This document shows, in pieces, positions 3,178 through 63,989 of a stretch of DNA of 64,000 nucleotides (its first letter is position 1; each line of letters begins with the position of its first letter). A program made the translations under genes and the position numbers. The notes beneath the pieces are model-generated. The model did not search any database, was not told the origin of the DNA, and saw only the letters and a program-made list of their open reading frames with translations. Source of the stretch: Escherichia phage vB_Eco_F26. The stretch lies in the sequence record OP870145.1; one strand, given 5' to 3'.

Positions 3178-4593
3178 TTATGGATAGGTATAGATGATAC
3201 CAGTTTCTAAAGCAGTTTTATGAATGATGTATCCATTACGCGATTCTTGGACATCAACTTCTGGATAGTCTTTAATCATCTTCTGAAGAGTGTAACGATG
3301 CAGGTAGTATTTACTATCTGGGTCGTCAGTTTTCCAATCTTTACCTTCTTCGGTCATTTTTTGGATTTCATCCATAACCCACCAACCGCACCAGATATAA
3401 GCTGAAGTACGATGTGGAAGAGGATGAACATAAGGTAGTTCACCTTCTGGTTCAATTGGAGTCCGTTCAGCAATAACAACTTCAGCTGTTGAACTAATTG
3501 TCTTTGAAGTGTAATTATCTTTAGTTAATACTGCTTCAACTTTAATTGTATGAGTACCCGCTGAGGAGGTATCAATACTATAAGTATTAGTAGAATTACT
3601 TTCTGCTACGTTGTCTTTCTTCCAAGAGTACACAATATTAGTATCACCAGGAGCACCAGTAACAGATGCTGTTAAAGTTGCAGTTCCACCAACAGTAGTA
3701 TTAACTGATGGCGGAGATAAAGAAATGGTGGCACTATTAAATGTCGCATTATTAGTTACTACTGTTGCTTCTGCTGAAATTTCTTTTGTAACATAATTTG
3801 TTGCAGAAACAGATGCGGTGCATTTAAGAGTTTTACTTCCGACTTCGGTCGGAGTGAATTTATACGTAGCAGAAGTTGCATCCGGAATATTACTGTCATC
3901 CATTGACCATTGGAATGTTATAGTAGCACCTGAAGGTGCACTAGAGACATTTGCAGTTAAAGTAATAGGAACACCAAAGACTGTAGTCGGAGACTCGGGT
4001 GTAATTTTTAGCGTCGAAGAATTAGCCTTTTTATTTACAGTCAAAGAAACCGCTGATGATTCTACTGTTTTATCAACGTAATCAGTTGCAGTCACTGTGA
4101 CAGAGCAAGTTATAGACTTAGTTCCTTCAGTTGTTGGTGTATATTCAAAGGTTGATTGCTTTTGACCGTCAACATCGACCCCGTCAACTTTCCATGTATA
4201 ATCAATAGCAGCACCAATAGGTTGATTGCTTACATTAGCAGTGAATGTTGTTGCTGTTCCAATTTCTACTGCCGCAGGAGAAGCCGGAGTAACAGTGATA
4301 GTGGAATTATTTTCTTTCTTATTAACAGTGATAGTTGTTGATGCTTCAGCTATTTCCGGATCTCCTGCGGAAAGTGTATTAGTTGCAACCACTTTAATTT
4401 TTTTTGTTCCTGCTGGAGAAGCAAGAGTATAATCCATTGTAGCAGCCGTAGAGCCCTGTGTTATATCATCTACAGTCCAGACGTATGTAATAGTACCGTC
4501 TGGGGTTTCACCTGCAGGTGTAGCAGTGAATGTTTGTGAACCTCCAATAACCCCTGTAGGAGTTAGAGGAGATAACGTGACAGTGAATGCCAT
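3178..4593 (-). CDS. hoc: Hoc, highly immunogenic outer capsid protein, with four tandem Ig-like domains
   Basis: 471 aa; four ~95-aa Thr/Ser-rich repeats plus C-terminal capsid-binding domain ...ELPYVHPLPHR...WCGWWVMDEIQK...IIYTYP. Confidence 0.85.
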   Translation of the reverse strand: MAFTVTLSPLTPTGVIGGSQTFTATPAGETPDGTITYVWTVDDITQGSTAATMDYTLASPAGTKKIKVVATNTLSAGDPEIAEASTTITVNKKENNSTITVTPASPAAVEIGTATTFTANVSNQPIGAAIDYTWKVDGVDVDGQKQSTFEYTPTTEGTKSITCSVTVTATDYVDKTVESSAVSLTVNKKANSSTLKITPESPTTVFGVPITLTANVSSAPSGATITFQWSMDDSNIPDATSATYKFTPTEVGSKTLKCTASVSATNYVTKEISAEATVVTNNATFNSATISLSPPSVNTTVGGTATLTASVTGAPGDTNIVYSWKKDNVAESNSTNTYSIDTSSAGTHTIKVEAVLTKDNYTSKTISSTAEVVIAERTPIEPEGELPYVHPLPHRTSAYIWCGWWVMDEIQKMTEEGKDWKTDDPDSKYYLHRYTLQKMIKDYPEVDVQESRNGYIIHKTALETGIIYTYP

Positions 4594-16116: not shown

Positions 16117-16164
16117 CAGGGATTGTCAATTCGCAGAGTAAAATATTAGGAGCAATATAACAAT

Positions 16165-16182
16165 GGGGACCTTTCGGTCCCC
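16165..16182 (+). terminator. GC hairpin plus T-run after gene 54
   Basis: ggggacc-tttc-ggtcccc followed by atatttttattt. Confidence 0.55.
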
Positions 16183-16188
16183 ATATTT

Positions 16189-16479
16189 TTATTTACGGAA
16201 TGAAATGAAAGCAGAAACTGAAGCAACTAAACTGTCTTCAATATAAACTTCAATTTTTACCGGAGCTTCTGACTCAAATTTACCTGTTACTACACCCTGA
16301 AAAATACTTTCAGTCTGTTCTGGCTTTGAAAAATTTTCAGAAGGAAAAATTCCAAACTTTTTATCTGTTCCGAAAATTTTGATAAATTCATCATAAACTG
16401 CTTCATTAAAAGCATTATCAGCAGGAATAACGCCTTCAACTACAAGTTCTTGACCTAAAAAGCGTAAAGAAGATTTCAT
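16189..16479 (-). CDS. hypothetical protein downstream of alt
   Basis: 96 aa ORF; start preceded by promoter/stem-loop cassette. Confidence 0.5.
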   Translation of the reverse strand: MKSSLRFLGQELVVEGVIPADNAFNEAVYDEFIKIFGTDKKFGIFPSENFSKPEQTESIFQGVVTGKFESEAPVKIEVYIEDSLVASVSAFISFRK

Positions 16480-16484
16480 TTTGT

Positions 16485-16545
16485 GTTCCTCATGTTATGT
16501 CAGTAAGAATACTATAACACAACATGAGGGACTTGTAAACTACAT
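16485..16545 (-). repeat. PeSL-like cassette copy A: early promoter (GTTTAC -35) plus stem-loop sequestering SD
   Basis: 50/53 nt identical to copy at 28957..29012; 9-bp stem cctcatgtt/aacatgagg contains GAGG SD of downstream ORF. Confidence 0.6.
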
Positions 16546-16898
16546 TTTGAACTTTTTAGTACGCGTAATAGGCATGCGTCGATTTTATACTGTTTCATTG
16601 TTTGAAGAGCAGTATCAAAAACAGCATTAATGACACCAATTGGATTTCCACCCAAGTTTTTAAGCTTAACTAATGATAGTTTCTCATTAACACCTATCAT
16701 TACGATATGCATCATTTTGTCGCCTGGTTTAACGTTTTATCTGTATCACCGCCAGAGGTGTATGTACAAAATCTAAATCCAGGAAGCACGCTTTCTTCGC
16801 CGGTTTGAATAGCAAAAATTTGTGGTATTTTATGCTTAGGATTTAAGTTAACAACCGGCGCCGAAGCGCCGTCAAATAATTATGTAATAAGTTCCATG
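16545..16898 (-). pseudogene. decayed tandem duplicate of the alt 5' end (N-terminal ~130 codons)
   Basis: about 70% nt identity to alt 18540..18997; ATGGAACTTATTACATAA gives stop at codon 6; alt segment replaced by ggcgccgaagcgcc hairpin; residual 67-aa ORF 16512..16715 aligns to Alt residues ~63-125. Confidence 0.65.
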
Positions 16899-16900
16899 AT

Positions 16901-18997
16901 TTATCCTTGAACGAACTTGTAAGGCATGTTTGCAATATCTATGCAAGACGCAATAATTCCAAGAGATGATTCTACTTTCTGTTTAACATTTGATGAAACA
17001 AATGATGCAAAGTCAACTCTGTCTTCTATTTCAATATCACCTGTCATTGCAACTACTTCGCCAGTTTCCATTAGACGGTCACCGTCATAAATTACTGATT
17101 CGGTGAGTTCTTCCGTAGTCATAACTTCAGCTTGAATGAGTTTTGTATTATTAGATGTTGTTCCGTCATTATTAGAAGCATCAGTTATTTTATTAACTTT
17201 GACCATCAATCCGCGCGGTAGAATAACTTCAGCTTCTGTTGCTATTCCGAGACTTCCTGGATATACAACATTAACTTTATGAGCTCCATCAATTGCCCAT
17301 CCTATTTGAACTTTAACGTATTCAGGATTTTCTTTATACGCTCTTATTTCGTTTGGATTAATAGTTATTCCTTCTTCATTTTTATCAACTGTTAATTCAT
17401 TGCGAGCTTCTGGTTCTAAAAGACCGATACCAGCATGTGTAATTCCAAAACGTCCAAAAATGATAGGAGTTAAAGAAGTAGATACAAAATTTCTGAAATA
17501 GAACACTTTATTTTTAACTAGTGCTTCGTATATAGGAGCAGTCATGCTTTGAGCACGATAAACTGTAATGCCTTCTGGTATACGGTCACCATTTTCAAAA
17601 GCTGAATCTAAATTATTTATCGCAGATTCAATTTCTTTTTCACTCATTACATCATATCGTTCTGGATTGTAGCGGCCTAAAAGAAGATTATTGATGTCAG
17701 TATATCCTGATCCACAATATTCTCTAATGCCGCGCTTTTGTGATGGAGTATATTTAGAACCATCACGGGCAATAGTAATATCAATCATTGGACCTGCACC
17801 AATTCCAGAAAAACTATAAATCATTCGTTTGAGGAATTTAGTTTTTGCTGCGTTCCAGGAATTTTTAGTTATTTCTTCCCAGACTTCATCTGGCTGTCCT
17901 TTACGGGTTTTATTATGTTTATCAAGCCAATTATCTTTATATTCTTCAAAGAATTTATTAACAGCTGCTGCGTATTTCTCTAAACATTTTATTGAAGTAG
18001 TTGGTTCATTTTTAATCGCATTAAGAATTACATCTTTAATTTTTTCAGAAACTTCATCAACCTCACTTTTTGAAAAGAATTTATAGTCATAGTGAAGTTC
18101 ATTTGCAGTTCCTTCAGCAATAATTTTTGCTGCCTTAGTTTTAGAAGCTAATGAATTAATTCCAAGCTTCATTTCTTCTGCTTCGGGAATTAAAGGAGCG
18201 GTAGCAGGTTTATTAAAATTAGCTGCGGTAGATTCATACTTCTGGAATAATTCACTTTCAAATCTAGAAGATTCTAATGATTGACTTTGCGCAATTGCTC
18301 TACGGGAAATTTTAACTTTAACAATAACAGCTTGGTCAGAACGTTTATCATTTTCTTGTGCAATAGATGCTGCAATTGCCTCATTTTTAGTTACTTGAGC
18401 TCCGGTATCTTTATTGATATAAACATCGCCGACCTTCGATTCAACTTTAGTAAAGAGCTCGGTACTAATTTCCGGAACTCCTGGAATGTCTTCTAGTGAT
18501 ACATTTTTGCGATGTATAAGAATATATGCATACTTTTTATCATAATCCCAGAGTTCCTTAAGAAGGACGTATCTGCCGCCTGAACGACTACGGATAAGTC
18601 TATCAGCAATAACTTGAATTTGTCGAGCTTGACCAGCAGTTTTAGACTTAAGAATACGAAGCATACAGGCATCAATTTTATACTGACGCATTGTTTGCAT
18701 TGCAACAGTAAAAACTGAATTGATGTAATTAATTGGGCTTGGACCGAGACCTTTTAATTTAGCAATTGAACCTTTAGCAGTTAGTGTAAAAGGAACAATG
18801 TGCATCATTTTATCGCCCATCTTTAAATCACGGTTAGTATCACCTCCAGATGTATAGGTACATAAACGAAAGCCTGGTTGTTCAATTGCGTCATCAACAT
18901 GAACTGAAAAAATTTGCGGTATTTTCTTCTTTGGATTTAAGTTTGTAATCGGAAGAGTAGTATCTTCGTCAAATAATTCTGTAATTAGTTCCATCAT
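16901..18997 (-). CDS. alt: Alt ADP-ribosyltransferase (packaged head protein)
   Basis: 698 aa; T4 position between gene 54 and gene 30. Confidence 0.85.
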   Translation of the reverse strand: MMELITELFDEDTTLPITNLNPKKKIPQIFSVHVDDAIEQPGFRLCTYTSGGDTNRDLKMGDKMMHIVPFTLTAKGSIAKLKGLGPSPINYINSVFTVAMQTMRQYKIDACMLRILKSKTAGQARQIQVIADRLIRSRSGGRYVLLKELWDYDKKYAYILIHRKNVSLEDIPGVPEISTELFTKVESKVGDVYINKDTGAQVTKNEAIAASIAQENDKRSDQAVIVKVKISRRAIAQSQSLESSRFESELFQKYESTAANFNKPATAPLIPEAEEMKLGINSLASKTKAAKIIAEGTANELHYDYKFFSKSEVDEVSEKIKDVILNAIKNEPTTSIKCLEKYAAAVNKFFEEYKDNWLDKHNKTRKGQPDEVWEEITKNSWNAAKTKFLKRMIYSFSGIGAGPMIDITIARDGSKYTPSQKRGIREYCGSGYTDINNLLLGRYNPERYDVMSEKEIESAINNLDSAFENGDRIPEGITVYRAQSMTAPIYEALVKNKVFYFRNFVSTSLTPIIFGRFGITHAGIGLLEPEARNELTVDKNEEGITINPNEIRAYKENPEYVKVQIGWAIDGAHKVNVVYPGSLGIATEAEVILPRGLMVKVNKITDASNNDGTTSNNTKLIQAEVMTTEELTESVIYDGDRLMETGEVVAMTGDIEIEDRVDFASFVSSNVKQKVESSLGIIASCIDIANMPYKFVQG

Positions 18998-19030
18998 ATC
19001 CTCTCTAGTGTTTATTCTATTTATAAAATT

Positions 19031-22935: not shown

Positions 22936-22984
22936 AACATTTTCCTCAATAGGGGCCAAAGCCCTTTTCTTTTGTTTGTATAAA

Positions 22985-28107: not shown

Positions 28108-28457
28108 TTAGAAAGGTCCTGGATGTCTTCTGCGAACTTGTTGAAGGAGTTGTTGATTTGTTTTTCAACCAATCCTGGCTTATGAGCCACCACATCCGCC
28201 TTCTTTGCGTCTTTGCGCAGTTTTTCATTTTCACGCTCAATAGCAGCAATTGCCTCACGATTTTTATTATTCATCGCATCAATATAATTATACTGAATTC
28301 GCAAATTATTTAATGCTAAGGCGTTTTCATTGGCCGTTTTTGTAATTTCAGTAACTGATGTTTCTAATCTTTCTACCTTATTTTTTAAAATAATAGATGT
28401 TCCGCCAAATGCTATTACAAGTAATAGCAATCCAGCTGTAAAATTACTTACATGCAT
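28104..28457 (-). CDS. hypothetical membrane-anchored coiled-coil protein
   Basis: N-terminal hydrophobic helix then charged coiled-coil. Confidence 0.4.
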   Translation of the reverse strand: MHVSNFTAGLLLLVIAFGGTSIILKNKVERLETSVTEITKTANENALALNNLRIQYNYIDAMNNKNREAIAAIERENEKLRKDAKKADVVAHKPGLVEKQINNSFNKFAEDIQDLSK

Positions 28458-28954
28458 AAAGTTTTAATAACCTCTATAATATCGTCTTGAGAAAGACCGT
28501 TAATTAAAATATGATGTTCAGCTGGAGATTTAGAAATTTTAAAGCATGCCTCAACATCTTCTGCCATATCCGATGCACTACGGTTTGGATTACTAATACC
28601 AAGGCGGTGTTTTCCCGTCAAAGGATTAACGATGATATAGCATTTGCAGTTATTGATATGAACATTAGGTTGAGTCTGATTAATGAACACTTCACAATCA
28701 TACTTAGCGAGTTGATTTTCTAAAAAGACTTTCATCTCTTCAACCGCATCAGGAAGCATATCACGGGCTTGCTCAAGACGACGATTTCGATATTCTTTAA
28801 TGGTCGTTTTCCGCTTGACTTGCTTAGCTAAATCTTTCTTAAGATCAGTGATATATCCAACTCGACGATTTCCTTTGAATACAGAAATCCCATCTGTAGT
28901 ATCACCGTATGCTTCAACGACCATTTCAGTAGTAATAAGTTGTAAATCCATCAT
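28448..28954 (-). CDS. alc: Alc, inhibitor of host transcription on cytosine DNA
   Basis: 168 aa at T4 alc position downstream of rnlA. Confidence 0.7.
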   Translation of the reverse strand: MMDLQLITTEMVVEAYGDTTDGISVFKGNRRVGYITDLKKDLAKQVKRKTTIKEYRNRRLEQARDMLPDAVEEMKVFLENQLAKYDCEVFINQTQPNVHINNCKCYIIVNPLTGKHRLGISNPNRSASDMAEDVEACFKISKSPAEHHILINGLSQDDIIEVIKTLCM

Positions 28955-28956
28955 AA

Positions 28957-29012
28957 AGTCCTCATGTTATGTCAGTAAGACTACTGTAACACAACACGAG
29001 GGACTTGTAAAC
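28957..29012 (-). repeat. PeSL-like cassette copy B between rnlA stop and alc start
   Basis: 50/53 nt identical to copy A; GTTTAC -35 three nt after rnlA stop; stem contains SD GAGGA of alc. Confidence 0.6.
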
Positions 29013-29015
29013 AGC

Positions 29016-30603
<1,588 letters not shown>

Positions 30604-40830: not shown

Positions 40831-41073
40831 TTAAACAGACTTTTTCACAATTTTCCAATCAGCTTTAAACTGTTCAACGTCAGAATGGTAAATCCAGAAT
40901 CCTGCGCTTTCTCCGTCTTCATAAAGAGGGCATCCATCGCATTCATCTTCCCATCCCATATCACGTAAAAGATGTTCAGCTTTTTCAACAAGTTCAGAAT
41001 CTTTACCGATGATATTAAAATACCATTTACCTCTAACTTCTGAATCTTTGATGCTTTGGCGTTGTAATCTCAT
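40831..41073 (-). CDS. hypothetical protein
   Basis: 80 aa ORF preceded by early promoter and SD AAGGAG. Confidence 0.45.
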   Translation of the reverse strand: MRLQRQSIKDSEVRGKWYFNIIGKDSELVEKAEHLLRDMGWEDECDGCPLYEDGESAGFWIYHSDVEQFKADWKIVKKSV

Positions 41074-41097
41074 TTTATTCTCCTTAGTTGATAGGGT

Positions 41098-41128
41098 AAT
41101 AGTATCACACTACTACCCTGATGTAAAC
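41098..41128 (-). promoter_or_regulatory. early promoter (GTTTAC -35)
   Basis: minus strand GTTTACatcagggtagtagtgtgATACTATTAC. Confidence 0.45.
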
Positions 41129-41130
41129 AA

Positions 41131-41391
41131 TTATTTTTGAATTTTATCGAGCCACTTACCAAGCTTAATCATTTCTTTAGTAGCCTTTTCCATACTTCTG
41201 AACTTAACCAATAGAGGATAGGTATCAACACCCATAACTAAACTGGTTACAAGACTGTGTTCACCCACAAGCCATAACGAATACGTTTGAATATCGAGCC
41301 CGTAATTTCTGTCTTTATGGACCCGTACACCCATCACTTCAAATTTCTCACTAGCTTTTTCTACCGCATCCAGGAAATCATCTTTAGTCAT
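41131..41391 (-). CDS. hypothetical protein
   Basis: Start placed at internal ATG one nt after upstream stop. Confidence 0.4.
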   Translation of the reverse strand: MTKDDFLDAVEKASEKFEVMGVRVHKDRNYGLDIQTYSLWLVGEHSLVTSLVMGVDTYPLLVKFRSMEKATKEMIKLGKWLDKIQK

Positions 41392-42053: not shown

Positions 42054-42092
42054 ATTATTTTCCTCTTTAACTATCAGCAGTATTGCCGATAG

Positions 42093-42125
42093 TTGTATAG
42101 TACCATGGAAGGACAAGGATGTAAA
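42093..42125 (-). promoter_or_regulatory. early promoter with A-rich UP-like element
   Basis: minus strand aaaaattttttcacaaaacgGTTTACatccttgtccttccatgGTACTATAC. Confidence 0.45.
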
Positions 42126-42156
42126 CCGTTTTGTGAAAAAATTTTTGAAATAAAAA

Positions 42157-42175
42157 AGGGGACCTCTAGGGTCCC
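42157..42175 (-). terminator. terminator hairpin downstream of gene 32
   Basis: ggggaccctagaggtcccc followed by tttttt on minus strand. Confidence 0.55.
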
Positions 42176-58284: not shown

Positions 58285-58322
58285 TTTCTAATCTCCGTAA
58301 TTCTGTATCAGTAGTTGATAGT

Positions 58323-58355
58323 TGTATAGTACCACAGTATGCTTTGGTTGTAAAC
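58323..58355 (-). promoter_or_regulatory. early promoter upstream of motA
   Basis: minus strand GTTTACaaccaaagcatactgtgGTACTATAC. Confidence 0.45.
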
Positions 58356-58387
58356 CGTTTTGTGAAAAAAAAATTTTAAATAAAAAA

Positions 58388-58407
58388 GGGAGAGCCGAGG
58401 CTCTCCC
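58388..58407 (-). terminator. GC hairpin
   Basis: gggagagcc-gagg-ctctccc. Confidence 0.5.
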
Positions 58408-61503: not shown

Positions 61504-61603
61504 AATAAGCGTTTAACATATCAATCATTAAAACGATTGGGAATATACTCAAAACTATTAGTATTATAACTACATTCCATATAGCTTTAACAATCTTTTT
61601 CAT
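61490..61603 (-). CDS. small membrane protein
   Basis: Start at internal ATG MKKIVKAIW just after promoter and SD GGAGGAACA. Confidence 0.4.
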   Translation of the reverse strand: MKKIVKAIWNVVIILIVLSIFPIVLMIDMLNAYFGFM

Positions 61604-61627
61604 TTTCTGTTCCTCCGTAGTTGATAG

Positions 61628-61661
61628 GGTAATAATACCACGGAAGAACAGTCCTGTAAAC
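61628..61661 (-). promoter_or_regulatory. early promoter with conserved leader
   Basis: minus strand GTTTACaggactgttcttccgtgGTATTATTAccctatcaactacggaggaaca. Confidence 0.45.
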
Positions 61662-61845
61662 AACTTTTTAAAAATATTCGTAATAAATGTGAATACCAAC
61701 TACTACCGCTGAAACCTGTGCAACCCACCACGCACAAGCAATAAGTACAGAATTCATAATTTTCATAATAACCTCATTACAAAAGTAAATGTTAAACAAA
61801 TTACTGGAATACTAATTAACCAAACAAAACACCACCACAGTGAAC

Positions 61846-62109: not shown

Positions 62110-62131
62110 TTTTGTTCCTCCGTAGTTGATA

Positions 62132-62166
62132 GGGTAATAGTACCACGGTCCTTGTGGTATGTAAAC
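62132..62166 (-). promoter_or_regulatory. early promoter with conserved leader
   Basis: minus strand GTTTACataccacaaggaccgtgGTACTATTAccctatcaactacggaggaaca. Confidence 0.45.
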
Positions 62167-62182
62167 TAGTTTATGAAAATTT

Positions 62183-62740
62183 TTAGATGGAAAGATACCA
62201 TCCGTTGTAGTTGCTTTTTCGCACTACCTTACGAAGGTCTTCTCTATCCCCAATGAACTTCGGAGTGTACTGGATGACACCTGGATGAATTTCTTTAGTG
62301 TTGAATATAATTATACAGTCCGCGACTTGATGATTTAGAATGGGCCCTAGATTTATTCCAGAACCGTATGGATACTCTCCGCTGCATCCTGTTGTTACCG
62401 AAATCCAACGTGAGTCAGTTTGATGTGTCTTAACTTCTACACGAAGCCCACAGTATTTTGGATGTGCTAAAACATCCCATGCATATGTGTACGGATCATC
62501 GACATCTTCTTGGCCTTTATTGACATATCCGCTTAGCCAATCTGCCACAAAAAACTCTGCGTACACAGCGATACGGCATCTTTCAATAACTTCTGCTTTA
62601 TCCTGGTTCGGGTTTTGTTTTAAAGAGTATCTTGCTGTATCAGCAATTTTGACCTTCATTTCACTAGTCAAGTTACTGTTCGATAGTGTAAATGTCGGAA
62701 TCTGAAATAGTCTCTGCAAACCCGGATTCGTTTTCTGCAT
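62183..62740 (-). CDS. denB: endonuclease IV
   Basis: 185 aa; T4 synteny next to rIIB. Confidence 0.75.
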   Translation of the reverse strand: MQKTNPGLQRLFQIPTFTLSNSNLTSEMKVKIADTARYSLKQNPNQDKAEVIERCRIAVYAEFFVADWLSGYVNKGQEDVDDPYTYAWDVLAHPKYCGLRVEVKTHQTDSRWISVTTGCSGEYPYGSGINLGPILNHQVADCIIIFNTKEIHPGVIQYTPKFIGDREDLRKVVRKSNYNGWYLSI

Positions 62741-62823
62741 TTAAACTTTCCTTTTATGTCTGAATCACTGGTATTCATATAAATCATAATTTCTCTTAAA
62801 ACAAAAGGGCCGAAGCCCTTATT

Positions 62824-63018
62824 TTATTTGAATTGTGCAATTCTTTTCTCTAGACATTCAGCATAAGATTTCATTGAGATGAACTGTGAAAGTAGTAGTT
62901 CTTGCTCAACTTCACTAACTGTTAGAAACTTTGCGCTTTCTAAAAATTTACTCAGTGCATTAATTTTGAGCATTAATTGATCGTATTCTTCTTTTACTCG
63001 TGCTTGATAACCTAACAT
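62824..63018 (-). CDS. hypothetical protein
   Basis: 64 aa ORF flanked by GC hairpins. Confidence 0.4.
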   Translation of the reverse strand: MLGYQARVKEEYDQLMLKINALSKFLESAKFLTVSEVEQELLLSQFISMKSYAECLEKRIAQFK

Positions 63019-63050
63019 AATTTTCCTTGATGTGATAAGGGCCGAAGCCC

Positions 63051-63989
63051 TTATTTAAATTGTTCAGTAACGTCTTCAACTACTTCGTATTGGCAGGTAC
63101 GCATTTTAGCATCGTTGTAATCAATCGGAATTGATACTACATCACGCGGATGTACTTTAACTTTTACAACTCGGCTGGTTGAACTGCCAAAGTGACGAAT
63201 ATAAGATTTAGAACACACATGCAGACCACGAGAACAAGTCTGTGTATCATCGTCATTCACACGAGTACGCGGCATTTTAACTACTTTACCCGGACTGTTA
63301 TCAAAGGTGTTTGAGTGACAGTCAAAGTAATTGCTGCGAACTACTTTCCAAGCATAGAAGTAACCATCTTCTGTAATTTCAATATCGTTTGCTACCAAGA
63401 AATCAAAGAGTCGAGATACCGCTTTTTGGCTTGGGTTTTCCAGCAGATTTTCCAAGAACGGGAAATAAAATTCAAAGTTTTCGCCTTTTTCCATCGAGTC
63501 AAGAATACGATCAATTAAACCAGACCGCAATTCAATATTTTGATAGAACAAGCTTCCACCTTCAATTCGAACATCACCGGAAATATATTTTTCAACAGCG
63601 CGACGAACGTTAATTTTTTGTGCCGCTTCTTCCAACTTATCCGCTACAAGCAGATTAAGAATTTCCTGGAAGTTTGAATGAGTATTAGGAGTTGCGTTAT
63701 AAGTTACGCCATCAACAGTAATTGAAATGAATTTTTTAGATGCATTCCAAATAATGTCAGATTTAGCAACTGGAGCAATAACTGCATCGCTATTAACTTT
63801 AACTGTAATATCACCGCTAATAGTAACTTTAGGGCGTTTAGCTTCTTCAGCATTTTTCAAAACACGACGGATTGTGTCAACCGATACACCTTGCCAATCA
63901 GCCAATTCCTGTTGGGTGTAATTACCACTTGAATACAGTTTAACAATTTCAGCTTGTTCGTTTTTGGTCAGGCATTTAATATTGTACAT
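63051..63989 (-). CDS. rIIB: rIIB
   Basis: 312 aa, same length as T4 rIIB; window ends 11 nt upstream of start. Confidence 0.85.
   Translation of the reverse strand: MYNIKCLTKNEQAEIVKLYSSGNYTQQELADWQGVSVDTIRRVLKNAEEAKRPKVTISGDITVKVNSDAVIAPVAKSDIIWNASKKFISITVDGVTYNATPNTHSNFQEILNLLVADKLEEAAQKINVRRAVEKYISGDVRIEGGSLFYQNIELRSGLIDRILDSMEKGENFEFYFPFLENLLENPSQKAVSRLFDFLVANDIEITEDGYFYAWKVVRSNYFDCHSNTFDNSPGKVVKMPRTRVNDDDTQTCSRGLHVCSKSYIRHFGSSTSRVVKVKVHPRDVVSIPIDYNDAKMRTCQYEVVEDVTEQFK

Follow-up and report, generated by a model that had tools for sequence, protein, structure and literature searches.

The window analysed here is a stretch of 64,000 nucleotides from Escherichia phage vB_Eco_F26 (OP870145.1), and around the cassette described below it belongs to a Tequatrovirus (T4-like) genome, with more than 500 Tequatrovirus genomes matching at 95-99% identity. 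The gene arrangement is that of T4: in plus-strand reading order, gene 54 on the plus strand is followed by alt.-3, alt.-2, the alt.-1 remnant, alt, alt.1 and the DNA ligase gene. A short regulatory cassette is found in two copies, one upstream of alt.-3 and the other in the spacer between rnlA and alc, and both copies are also present in T4. The genes and the signals that surround the two copies are the following.

16163-16184, no strand assigned: bidirectional terminator-like hairpin that ends the alt.-3 unit (and gene 54 on the plus strand)
16189-16479, minus strand: alt.-3 (96 aa), the gene that copy A serves; in T4 its RNA and its protein are both early
16512-16900, minus strand: alt-paralog remnant (T4 alt.-1/alt.-2), of which the alt.-2 ORF takes up 16512-16715
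16551-16559, minus strand: deletion junction, the sole surviving CTAAAAAGT, 10 bp upstream of the copy A -35
16901-18997, minus strand: alt (698 aa), expressed late; its transcripts would be a source of read-through into copy A
19018-19025, minus strand: late-promoter motif TATAAATA upstream of alt, likely source of the read-through
19049-19030, minus strand: terminator preceding the late-promoter motif of alt
28448-28954, minus strand: alc, whose product inhibits host transcription; copy B serves it, and in T4 its RNA and its protein are both early
29016-30176, minus strand: rnlA (gene 63), read-through source for alc, with its TAA stop 3 nt upstream of the copy B -35

The cassette itself is 54 nt long, from the -35 to the SD, and the two copies are identical at 51 of these 54 positions (94%) in a repeat search; no comparable match appeared in 100 dinucleotide-preserving shuffles. 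The homology between the copies extends from the G of the -35 GTTTAC to the GAGGA of the SD; the flanks are unrelated. The sigma70 promoter spacing rule places the predicted +1 about 7 nt after the -10, which gives the following elements.

16487-16540, minus strand: copy A, upstream of alt.-3
16534-16539, minus strand: copy A -35, TTTACA, with the preceding G at 16540; the TAG stop of the alt-paralog frame is 16542-16540
16516-16529, minus strand: copy A 5' arm of the outer stem, CCTCATGTTGTGTT, in the promoter spacer and upstream of the predicted +1
16511-16519, minus strand: copy A extended -10, TGtTATAGT; the TAG stop of the alt.-2 ORF is 16514-16512
16504, minus strand: copy A predicted transcription start, an A 7 nt past the -10, inferred from the spacing rule
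16488-16501, minus strand: copy A 3' arm of the outer stem, GACATAACATGAGG, which includes the SD GAGG at 16491-16488
28959-29012, minus strand: copy B, which fills the 61-nt rnlA-alc spacer
28988-29001, minus strand: copy B 5' arm of the outer stem, CCTCGTGTTGTGTT, in which an A-to-G change relative to copy A gives a G.U pair
28983-28988, minus strand: copy B -10, TACAGT; its -35 TTTACA is 29011-29006 and its predicted +1 about 28976
28960-28973, minus strand: copy B 3' arm, which includes the SD GAGG at 28963-28960; the alc ATGs are at 28954 and 28951

A promoter scan describes copy A as TTTACA-17 nt-TATAGT with a TG extension, matching the consensus at 10 of 12 positions. Between 16000 and 19300 no site scores higher and one, at 16129, scores equally, but copy A alone combines 10/12 with a TG extension. 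Both predicted promoters also fit, with one mismatch, the TTTACW-N17-TAYWAT consensus of the PST/T4 PeSLs, the promoter-early stem-loop cassettes of T4-type phages (Arbiol et al., 2010, PMC2839356; Comeau et al., 2014, PMC4122927). The sequence upstream of both is A-rich, and the distance from GAGG to ATG is 8 nt at alt.-3 and 5 or 8 nt at the two ATGs of alc. A promoter is annotated at the same bases as copy A in phage Lutter, and one in the rnlA-alc spacer in phage MP1. A first-pass annotation of this DNA had already reported an element of about 55 bp occurring twice, with an exact 56-mer at 16485-16540 (minus strand), a sigma70-like early promoter and a location at the end of the alt pseudogene. 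The duplication and the promoter (TTTACA-17-TGnTATAGT, T4 early type) are borne out by the repeat search and the scan, and the position was also right, in that the cassette follows the last codons of the truncated paralog. In the literature searched, mapped T4 5' ends were found for neither promoter and no mention was found of alt.-3; older sources, such as Miller et al. (2003) and Repoila et al. (1994), lay outside this scope. The two promoters are likely to have been described in the older literature already, and the alc hairpin may have been.

RNA that reads through copy A is predicted to form a hairpin whose outer stem of 14 bp pairs 16529-16516 with 16501-16488; above it come a bulge of 2 nt, an inner stem of 4 bp and a UUCU loop. 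The -10 hexamer lies at the top of the 5' arm, and the 3' arm consists of the leader plus the SD. The fold of copy A is worth -24.1 kcal/mol (z -5.2) and that of copy B -28.6 kcal/mol (z -5.5), and for both copies none of 200 shuffles folds as well. All four SD bases are paired in the predicted read-through RNA, so the earlier proposal of a stem that holds the SD stands, with the length revised from 9 bp to about 18 bp (14 + 4) by folding. Opening the SD is predicted to cost 10-12 kcal/mol in read-through RNAs of 160-300 nt. For the whole region from the SD to the AUG, the predicted cost is 14-16 kcal/mol in read-through RNA starting 60 or 200 nt upstream, versus 2-3 kcal/mol in RNA from the cassette's own promoter. 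The leaders of such own-promoter RNAs are predicted to be nearly unstructured (0 to -0.8 kcal/mol) in all eight cassettes examined. As the predicted starts at 16504 and 28976 fall inside the inner stem, an own-promoter transcript would contain the 3' arm only. The predicted opening costs thus lend support to the suggestion, made in the first-pass annotation, that a start at the cassette's own promoter would free the SD and that read-through would mask it. The stem is not followed by a U-tract and the terminator scan had no match at the cassette, for which reasons an identity as intrinsic terminator was dropped. Attenuation of a kind that needs no U-tract would be compatible with this result. 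Rfam has no known RNA family over either copy at E<=1.

The rnlA-alc spacer was compared in ten further genera besides Tequatrovirus, alc itself being present in roughly 1,100 Straboviridae genomes. Six of them, Gelderlandvirus, Karamvirus, Moonvirus, Dhakavirus, Marfavirus and Jiaodavirus, share the layout: the 5' arm occupies the spacer directly after GTTTACA, a TG-extended -10 and a loop come next, and the SD forms the end of the 3' arm. Between genera the arms vary in sequence, and their complementarity within each genus is kept.

Gelderlandvirus: 5' arm TCTCCGTTT, 3' arm AAACGGAGA
Karamvirus and Moonvirus: 5' arm TCTCCATTTGGTT, 3' arm AACCAAATGGAGA
Dhakavirus: 5' arm TCTCCTCAT, 3' arm ATGAGGAGA
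Marfavirus: 5' arm CCTCGTTTGTT, 3' arm AACAAACGAGG
Jiaodavirus: 5' arm TCCTCGTCAG, 3' arm CTGATGAGGA

In a pair table anchored on the SD and numbered inward from its last base, two to four standard pair types occur at each of the stem positions 5 to 9. Covariation was assessed by an energy-based permutation over six genera that ignores their kinship. The native duplexes between promoter half and leader half at alc reach -14.8 to -24.7 kcal/mol, versus a mean of about -12 kcal/mol for cross-genus combinations, and among all 720 permutations it is the native assignment of arms that gives the lowest sum of duplex energies, a result which argues that the hairpin is under selection. Two kinds of alignment were set aside: in MAFFT alignments the promoter boxes align and the 5' arms are out of register between genera, and the covariance-model alignment mixed in antisense matches and mis-registered some genera. 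Relatives recovered from IMG/VR by protein searches with Alt.-3 and Alc were near-identical Tequatrovirus loci only, of little use for covariation. The SD-masking design is not indispensable at alc: Mosigvirus, Gualtarvirus, Mosugukvirus, Gaprivervirus, Acinetobacter phage Ac42 and Aeromonas phage 44RR either lack it or have a different arrangement there.

Within Tequatrovirus, 98.6% of the stem cells are paired, and the two disruptive cells both belong to one phage. The stem substitutions in this genus mostly preserve pairing through wobbles, such as A-U/G.U, C-G to U.G and U.G to U-A, the last being the change in the alt.-3 copy of T4, and this favours sense-strand RNA over DNA as the molecule concerned. 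The structure pair count contains no double-sided stem changes within Tequatrovirus and is therefore uninformative for this genus. In most genera the two strands are similar in how well they fold, and it is only the G.U pairs of Tequatrovirus and Jiaodavirus that argue specifically for sense RNA.

At alt.-3 the picture is a different one outside Tequatrovirus. In all eight other genera examined a promoter lies directly after the alt stop codon, which it overlaps in five of the eight (TAGTTTAC), and it contains nothing more than a mini-hairpin of 4-6 bp inside the spacer, for example CCACA-AGGA-TGTGG. The SD in these genera is unpaired with the promoter half, the corresponding duplexes amounting to -4.7 to -9.4 kcal/mol. 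The SD-masking cassette at alt.-3 is thus specific to Tequatrovirus, and because the eight other genera have only the small spacer hairpin there, the Tequatrovirus copy is most likely a transplant of the alc cassette, a direction of transfer derived from the sequence comparison. The alt.-3 leaders of the other genera already contain ACATGAGGA, and the part of the alt.-3 promoter that lies between GTTTACA and CATGAGGA appears to be a replacement. The simplest history would be that the alc cassette supplied a conversion patch, with the shared GTTTACA(A) and (A)CATGAGGA as its boundaries. In some genomes (L007 and L010, from one contig) the two copies are identical at 54 of 54 positions. Transfer in the reverse direction was considered for Mosigvirus, where alc resembles the alt.-3-type cassette at 79% similarity, a value not clearly above the general resemblance among early promoters.

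The spread of the cassette was surveyed by blastn of a 91-nt region against 50,697 phage records, which returned 1115 places in 617 phage records, or about two full copies per genome. The matches besides the two Tequatrovirus places are partial: some are orthologous, and a single one has a third context. It is found in Mosigvirus ST0, where an unrelated ORF of 66 codons adjoining ndd is preceded by the stretch between -10 and ATG, about 85% identical. This partial copy indicates that pieces of the cassette move between loci. A wider mobility, or a larger number of copies, was dropped as an idea, with about two places per Tequatrovirus genome among the 50,697 records. The window also contains other early-promoter cassettes, the repeat families D1, D4 and D5, which are only about 70% alike and have hairpins confined to the spacer and the -10. 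A further cassette, at 61661 on the minus strand in the denB/ndd region, has a spacer that pairs with its own SD.

The remnant next to copy A has a history of its own. NR1 and many other Tequatroviruses possess two complete tandem alt genes, relative to which 1,690 bp are deleted in the window and in T4. Both ends of the deletion share the 9-bp direct repeat CTAAAAAGT, which lies inside the coding sequence of the alt paralog; in the intact paralog its two sites are near codon 116 and six codons before the end. The alt homology runs on past the junction for the last six codons, to the TAG that overlaps the copy A -35, and NR1, whose second alt is intact, has an identical cassette at the same distance from alt.-3. 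The junction at 16559-16551 and the NR1 cassette contradict the earlier view that copy A sits exactly where the alt homology ends, which had been taken to suggest that it mediated the rearrangement. Together they point to an ordinary microhomology deletion, of which the cassette was neither the breakpoint nor the outcome, and the presence of a promoter after the alt stop in all eight other genera marks the position of the cassette as ancestral and not as a product of rearrangement. A deletion mediated by the cassette was therefore rejected, the junction being a 9-bp repeat in coding sequence and the cassette being unchanged beside intact paralogs. In the T4 GenBank/RefSeq annotation, alt.-1/alt.-2 are described as an old duplication of the first part of alt. 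The truncated paralog and its junction are the same in T4 and in the window; the deletion mechanism is absent from that annotation.

Taken as a whole, the cassette is read here, with somewhat better than even confidence, as a PeSL-like promoter that would act as a translational gate and restrict the synthesis of Alc and Alt.-3 to transcripts from their own early promoters. The gate would be built on an immediate-early sigma70 promoter (-35 GTTTACA, 17-nt spacer, TG-extended -10) whose spacer and -10 are complementary to the 25-nt leader and the SD. RNA polymerase would start in the loop or in the 3' arm (at about 16504 and 28976) and produce an mRNA with the 3' arm only, in which the SD would be open. 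Transcripts started further upstream, namely late alt transcripts from TATAAATA at 19025 and longer early or middle transcripts through rnlA, would carry both arms and fold into a hairpin of about 18 bp and -24 to -29 kcal/mol that buries the SD. Alt.-3 and Alc would consequently be translated solely from their own immediate-early transcripts, and, with the embedded promoter being immediate-early, translation would be limited to the first minutes of infection. A bolder form of this reading is put at even chances: the early gate would have been kept by compensatory evolution at alc in at least seven Tevenvirinae genera, with the promoter spacer as anti-SD strand, and the 54-nt module would have been transplanted to alt.-3 in the Tequatrovirus ancestor via microhomologies at the -35 and the SD. 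In the preferred reading, too, the alc copy would be ancestral, and in Tequatrovirus a patch of the alc cassette would have replaced an older alt.-3 promoter.

The timing known from T4 provides the context for such a gate. In the T4 time course, alt.-3 and alc have early RNA and early protein, alt is late, rnlA has early RNA and late protein, and alt.-1/alt.-2 have 'middle' RNA and undetected protein (PMC9697503 supplement). The scan found no terminator-like site between alt and copy A, the next terminator being the one at 16163-16184, past alt.-3. Upstream of rnlA, no late-promoter motif was found within 32 kb of the window, and read-through into alc would therefore be early or middle.

Among the other explanations, the one that survives best, itself unlikely, is that of a canonical PeSL, in which the stem-loop terminates or attenuates upstream transcription, the element serves mainly as recombination homology, and the pairing of the SD is incidental to a crowded 60-nt spacer. 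The definition fits, with AT-rich sequence upstream, a sigma70-like promoter, a stem-loop between or over the -35 and -10, an SD and an ATG (PMC2839356), and the cassette has evidently moved between loci, part of it lying before an unrelated ORF in Mosigvirus ST0. However, a U-run is missing after the stem in copy A and in most genera, the terminator scan is empty at the cassette, and there are only two full copies per genome across about 600 phage records. The 3' arm, moreover, ends on the SD in seven of seven genera, in spite of the variation of the arms and of the SD type (GAGG or GGAG), which would be unexpected if the pairing of the SD were incidental.

Translational coupling, in which the downstream gene on a polycistronic RNA is translated only once a ribosome that ends rnlA, the alt paralog or alt.-2 melts the stem, is quite unlikely. 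The stops do lie near the stem, a TAA 3 nt before the -35 at alc and a TAG overlapping the -35 at alt.-3. However, the first paired base is found 9-14 nt past the stop of rnlA or of the alt paralog in every genus. Judging by ribosome footprints, 9-14 nt past the stop is just outside the reach of a terminating ribosome, which should therefore not open the stem, and this counts against simple coupling. Early Alc and Alt.-3 proteins in T4, against late RnlA and Alt proteins, also speak against it. A special case is that of the T4-type deletion genomes, where the frameshifted alt.-2 ORF ends at the TAG in the -10 (16514-16512), within the hairpin. Translation of alt.-2 would melt the stem there and could couple alt.-3 instead of silencing it; the alt.-2 protein, however, is undetected in T4.

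It is very unlikely that the hairpin is a stability or processing element at the 3' end of the rnlA and alt mRNAs, for instance as a block to 3' exonucleases or as a site for RNase III, with no role in downstream translation. The near-perfect helix of about 18 bp, placed right behind the upstream stop, would suit such a function, and T4 mRNAs are heavily processed (PMC3014915), but the constant position of the 5' arm upstream of the predicted +1 and of the 3' arm over the SD would be left unexplained, as would the spacer hairpins of 4-6 bp at alt.-3 in eight other genera. Hardly credible, finally, is an inverted repeat that works as DNA, either as a cruciform or as an operator for a dimeric protein that modulates the promoter: the repeat spans the promoter core and antisense folding is similar to sense folding in most genera, yet the arms are 12-20 nt apart, only their complementarity is conserved between genera, which argues against a sequence-specific operator, and the Tequatrovirus and Jiaodavirus variants are G.U/U.G wobbles, mismatched in DNA and in the antisense strand.

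If the translational gate proposed here is real, 54 bases, in spacers of about 60 nt, would pack together a promoter, an insulation from upstream transcription that needs no terminator, and a temporal limit on translation, and this would explain how the early Alc and Alt.-3 can be encoded directly downstream of genes with late products. Some cassettes made of a promoter and a stem-loop would then be translational devices, not terminators, that can be exchanged between loci, which would refine the PeSL idea, and the transplant to alt.-3 would be a concrete case of a regulatory cassette that moved along with its post-transcriptional logic. Early transcription units could be better annotated in hundreds of T4-like phages, and the cassette could be used as a compact, insulated promoter-RBS part in phage engineering. 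It would also be the first early-promoter counterpart of the hairpin switches of T4 late genes; since the principle is already established for the latter, the general picture of T4 biology would not be fundamentally altered.

With the PeSLs, the cassette shares the format of an intergenic unit of about 55-65 bp, with AT-rich upstream sequence, a strong sigma70-like early promoter and a stem-loop that overlaps it, followed by SD and ATG. It is likewise repeated within the genome and bears signs of exchange between loci, from alc to alt.-3 in Tequatrovirus and, in part, to the position before the unrelated Mosigvirus ORF. [quoted passage not shown] The PeSL stem-loop has been interpreted as a terminator or attenuator, with no appeal to translation (PMC2839356; PMC4122927), and the words 'translation' and 'ribosome' are absent from the 2010 paper (PMC2839356). 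The cassette differs from PeSLs in that its 3' arm consists of the leader and the SD, with no terminator-like U-tract tail, in that only two copies exist, outside the classic hyperplastic regions, so that it falls short of the multi-copy character of PeSLs, and in that neither copy is at the breakpoint of the neighbouring indel. As the first-pass annotation had stated, PeSL cassettes have indeed been proposed as recombination modules (PMC2839356; PMC4122927), and PeSL-like is a reasonable label as a description.

The second known system is that of the T4 genes e, soc, 49 and I-TevI, in which a hairpin hides the RBS on long transcripts and a promoter inside it gives rise to translatable short ones (PMC3014915). 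Here, too, the SD is predicted to lie in a helix whose 5' strand is upstream of the start at the proximal promoter, and the design is kept in related phages with varied sequences. In e, soc, 49 and I-TevI, however, the promoters are gp55-dependent late promoters (TATAAATA), expression is delayed until late in infection, and the mechanism is established. The cassette instead has an immediate-early sigma70 promoter, with no TATAAATA late promoter found inside it, its 5' arm is the promoter spacer itself, and its logic, which is predicted only, would be inverted. With an embedded promoter of the sigma70 early type and not of the late type, the cassette of alt.-3 and alc would be a variant of the e/soc/49/I-TevI family and not a strict member of it.

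A third early-promoter cassette of the window likewise has a promoter spacer that pairs with the SD, so alc and alt.-3 are not the sole users of this design. The arms of the predicted hairpin of this third cassette, CTGTTCTTCCGTGGT and ACTACGGAGGAACAG, form 15 bp with an energy of -22.7 kcal/mol, and a 37-codon ORF lies downstream, in the hyperplastic denB/ndd region.

61601-61661, minus strand: third early-promoter cassette, spacer pairing with the SD (predicted hairpin)

In eight other genera, the -35/-10 spacer of the alt.-3 promoter holds a mini-hairpin of 4-6 bp, which changes compensatorily between genera (CCACA..TGTGG, GCAC..GTGC, CACA..TGTG, CATCC..GGATG). This mini-hairpin lies entirely upstream of the predicted transcription start, and its formation would therefore be confined to read-through RNA or to DNA. 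The alc cassette of Mosigvirus likewise has a spacer mini-hairpin, and SD masking is absent from it. It is 73-79% like alt.-3-type cassettes versus 59-71% like the alc cassettes of other genera. It may represent a reverse replacement, of the alt.-3 type into alc, though by a small margin of similarity. In Mosigvirus ST0, an unrelated 66-aa ORF adjoining ndd is preceded by a promoter cassette that, from the -10 to the ATG, shows ~85% identity with its alt.-3 counterpart in Tequatrovirus, GAGGAACACAAAATG being identical in both. The hairpin of this ST0 cassette is of another type. Finally, Gaprivervirus PSD2001 and TH22 (comparison loci L018, 157-390, and L037) have between rnlA and alc an additional short alc-like ORF, annotated as "inhibitor of host transcription", in whose promoter region a hairpin pairs the SD with the bases directly 3' of the -10.

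L026-L034, locus positions ~340-400: alt.-3 promoter mini-hairpins of eight other genera, ~60 nt upstream of alt.-3
L019, 344-403: alc promoter of Mosigvirus JN02, spacer mini-hairpin ACACC-AAGGAA-GGTGT
L039, 483-543 (MF044457.1, 64940-65000): promoter cassette of Mosigvirus ST0, found by sequence similarity

Upstream of alt.-3, the frameshifted alt.-2 ORF ends at the TAG at 16512-16514 (minus strand), which lies both in the -10 hexamer TATAGT and in the hairpin. If alt.-2 were translated, its ribosomes would unwind the 5' arm, and alt.-3 translation could in this way be linked to that of alt.-2. The second alt gene has suffered a 1,690-bp deletion between two 9-bp direct repeats, CTAAAAAGT. 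T4 has this deletion too, many Tequatroviruses keep both alt genes, and the deleted and two-alt forms are each common among 543 matching records. Repeated GC-rich terminator hairpins also occur, GGGACC-TTTC-GGTCCC twice and AAGGGCC-GAAG-GCCCTT three times, and the one at 16163-16184 is predicted to serve as terminator for gene 54 (plus strand) and alt.-3 (minus strand) alike.

16551-16559 in the window, 1550-1558 and 3249-3257 in comparison locus L002: 9-bp direct repeats at the alt deletion
16163-16184; 1571-1586; 22951-22976, 62805-62830, 63037-63062: repeated GC-rich terminator hairpins

Further early-promoter cassettes of the window belong to the repeat families D1, D4 and D5, which are ~70-80% alike. 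Their hairpins span the spacer and the -10 and leave out the SD, and these cassettes look like canonical T4/PST-type PeSLs.

41073-41145, 61606-61678, 62111-62183, minus strand: family D1 cassettes
42088-42162, 58317-58391, minus strand: family D4 and D5 cassettes
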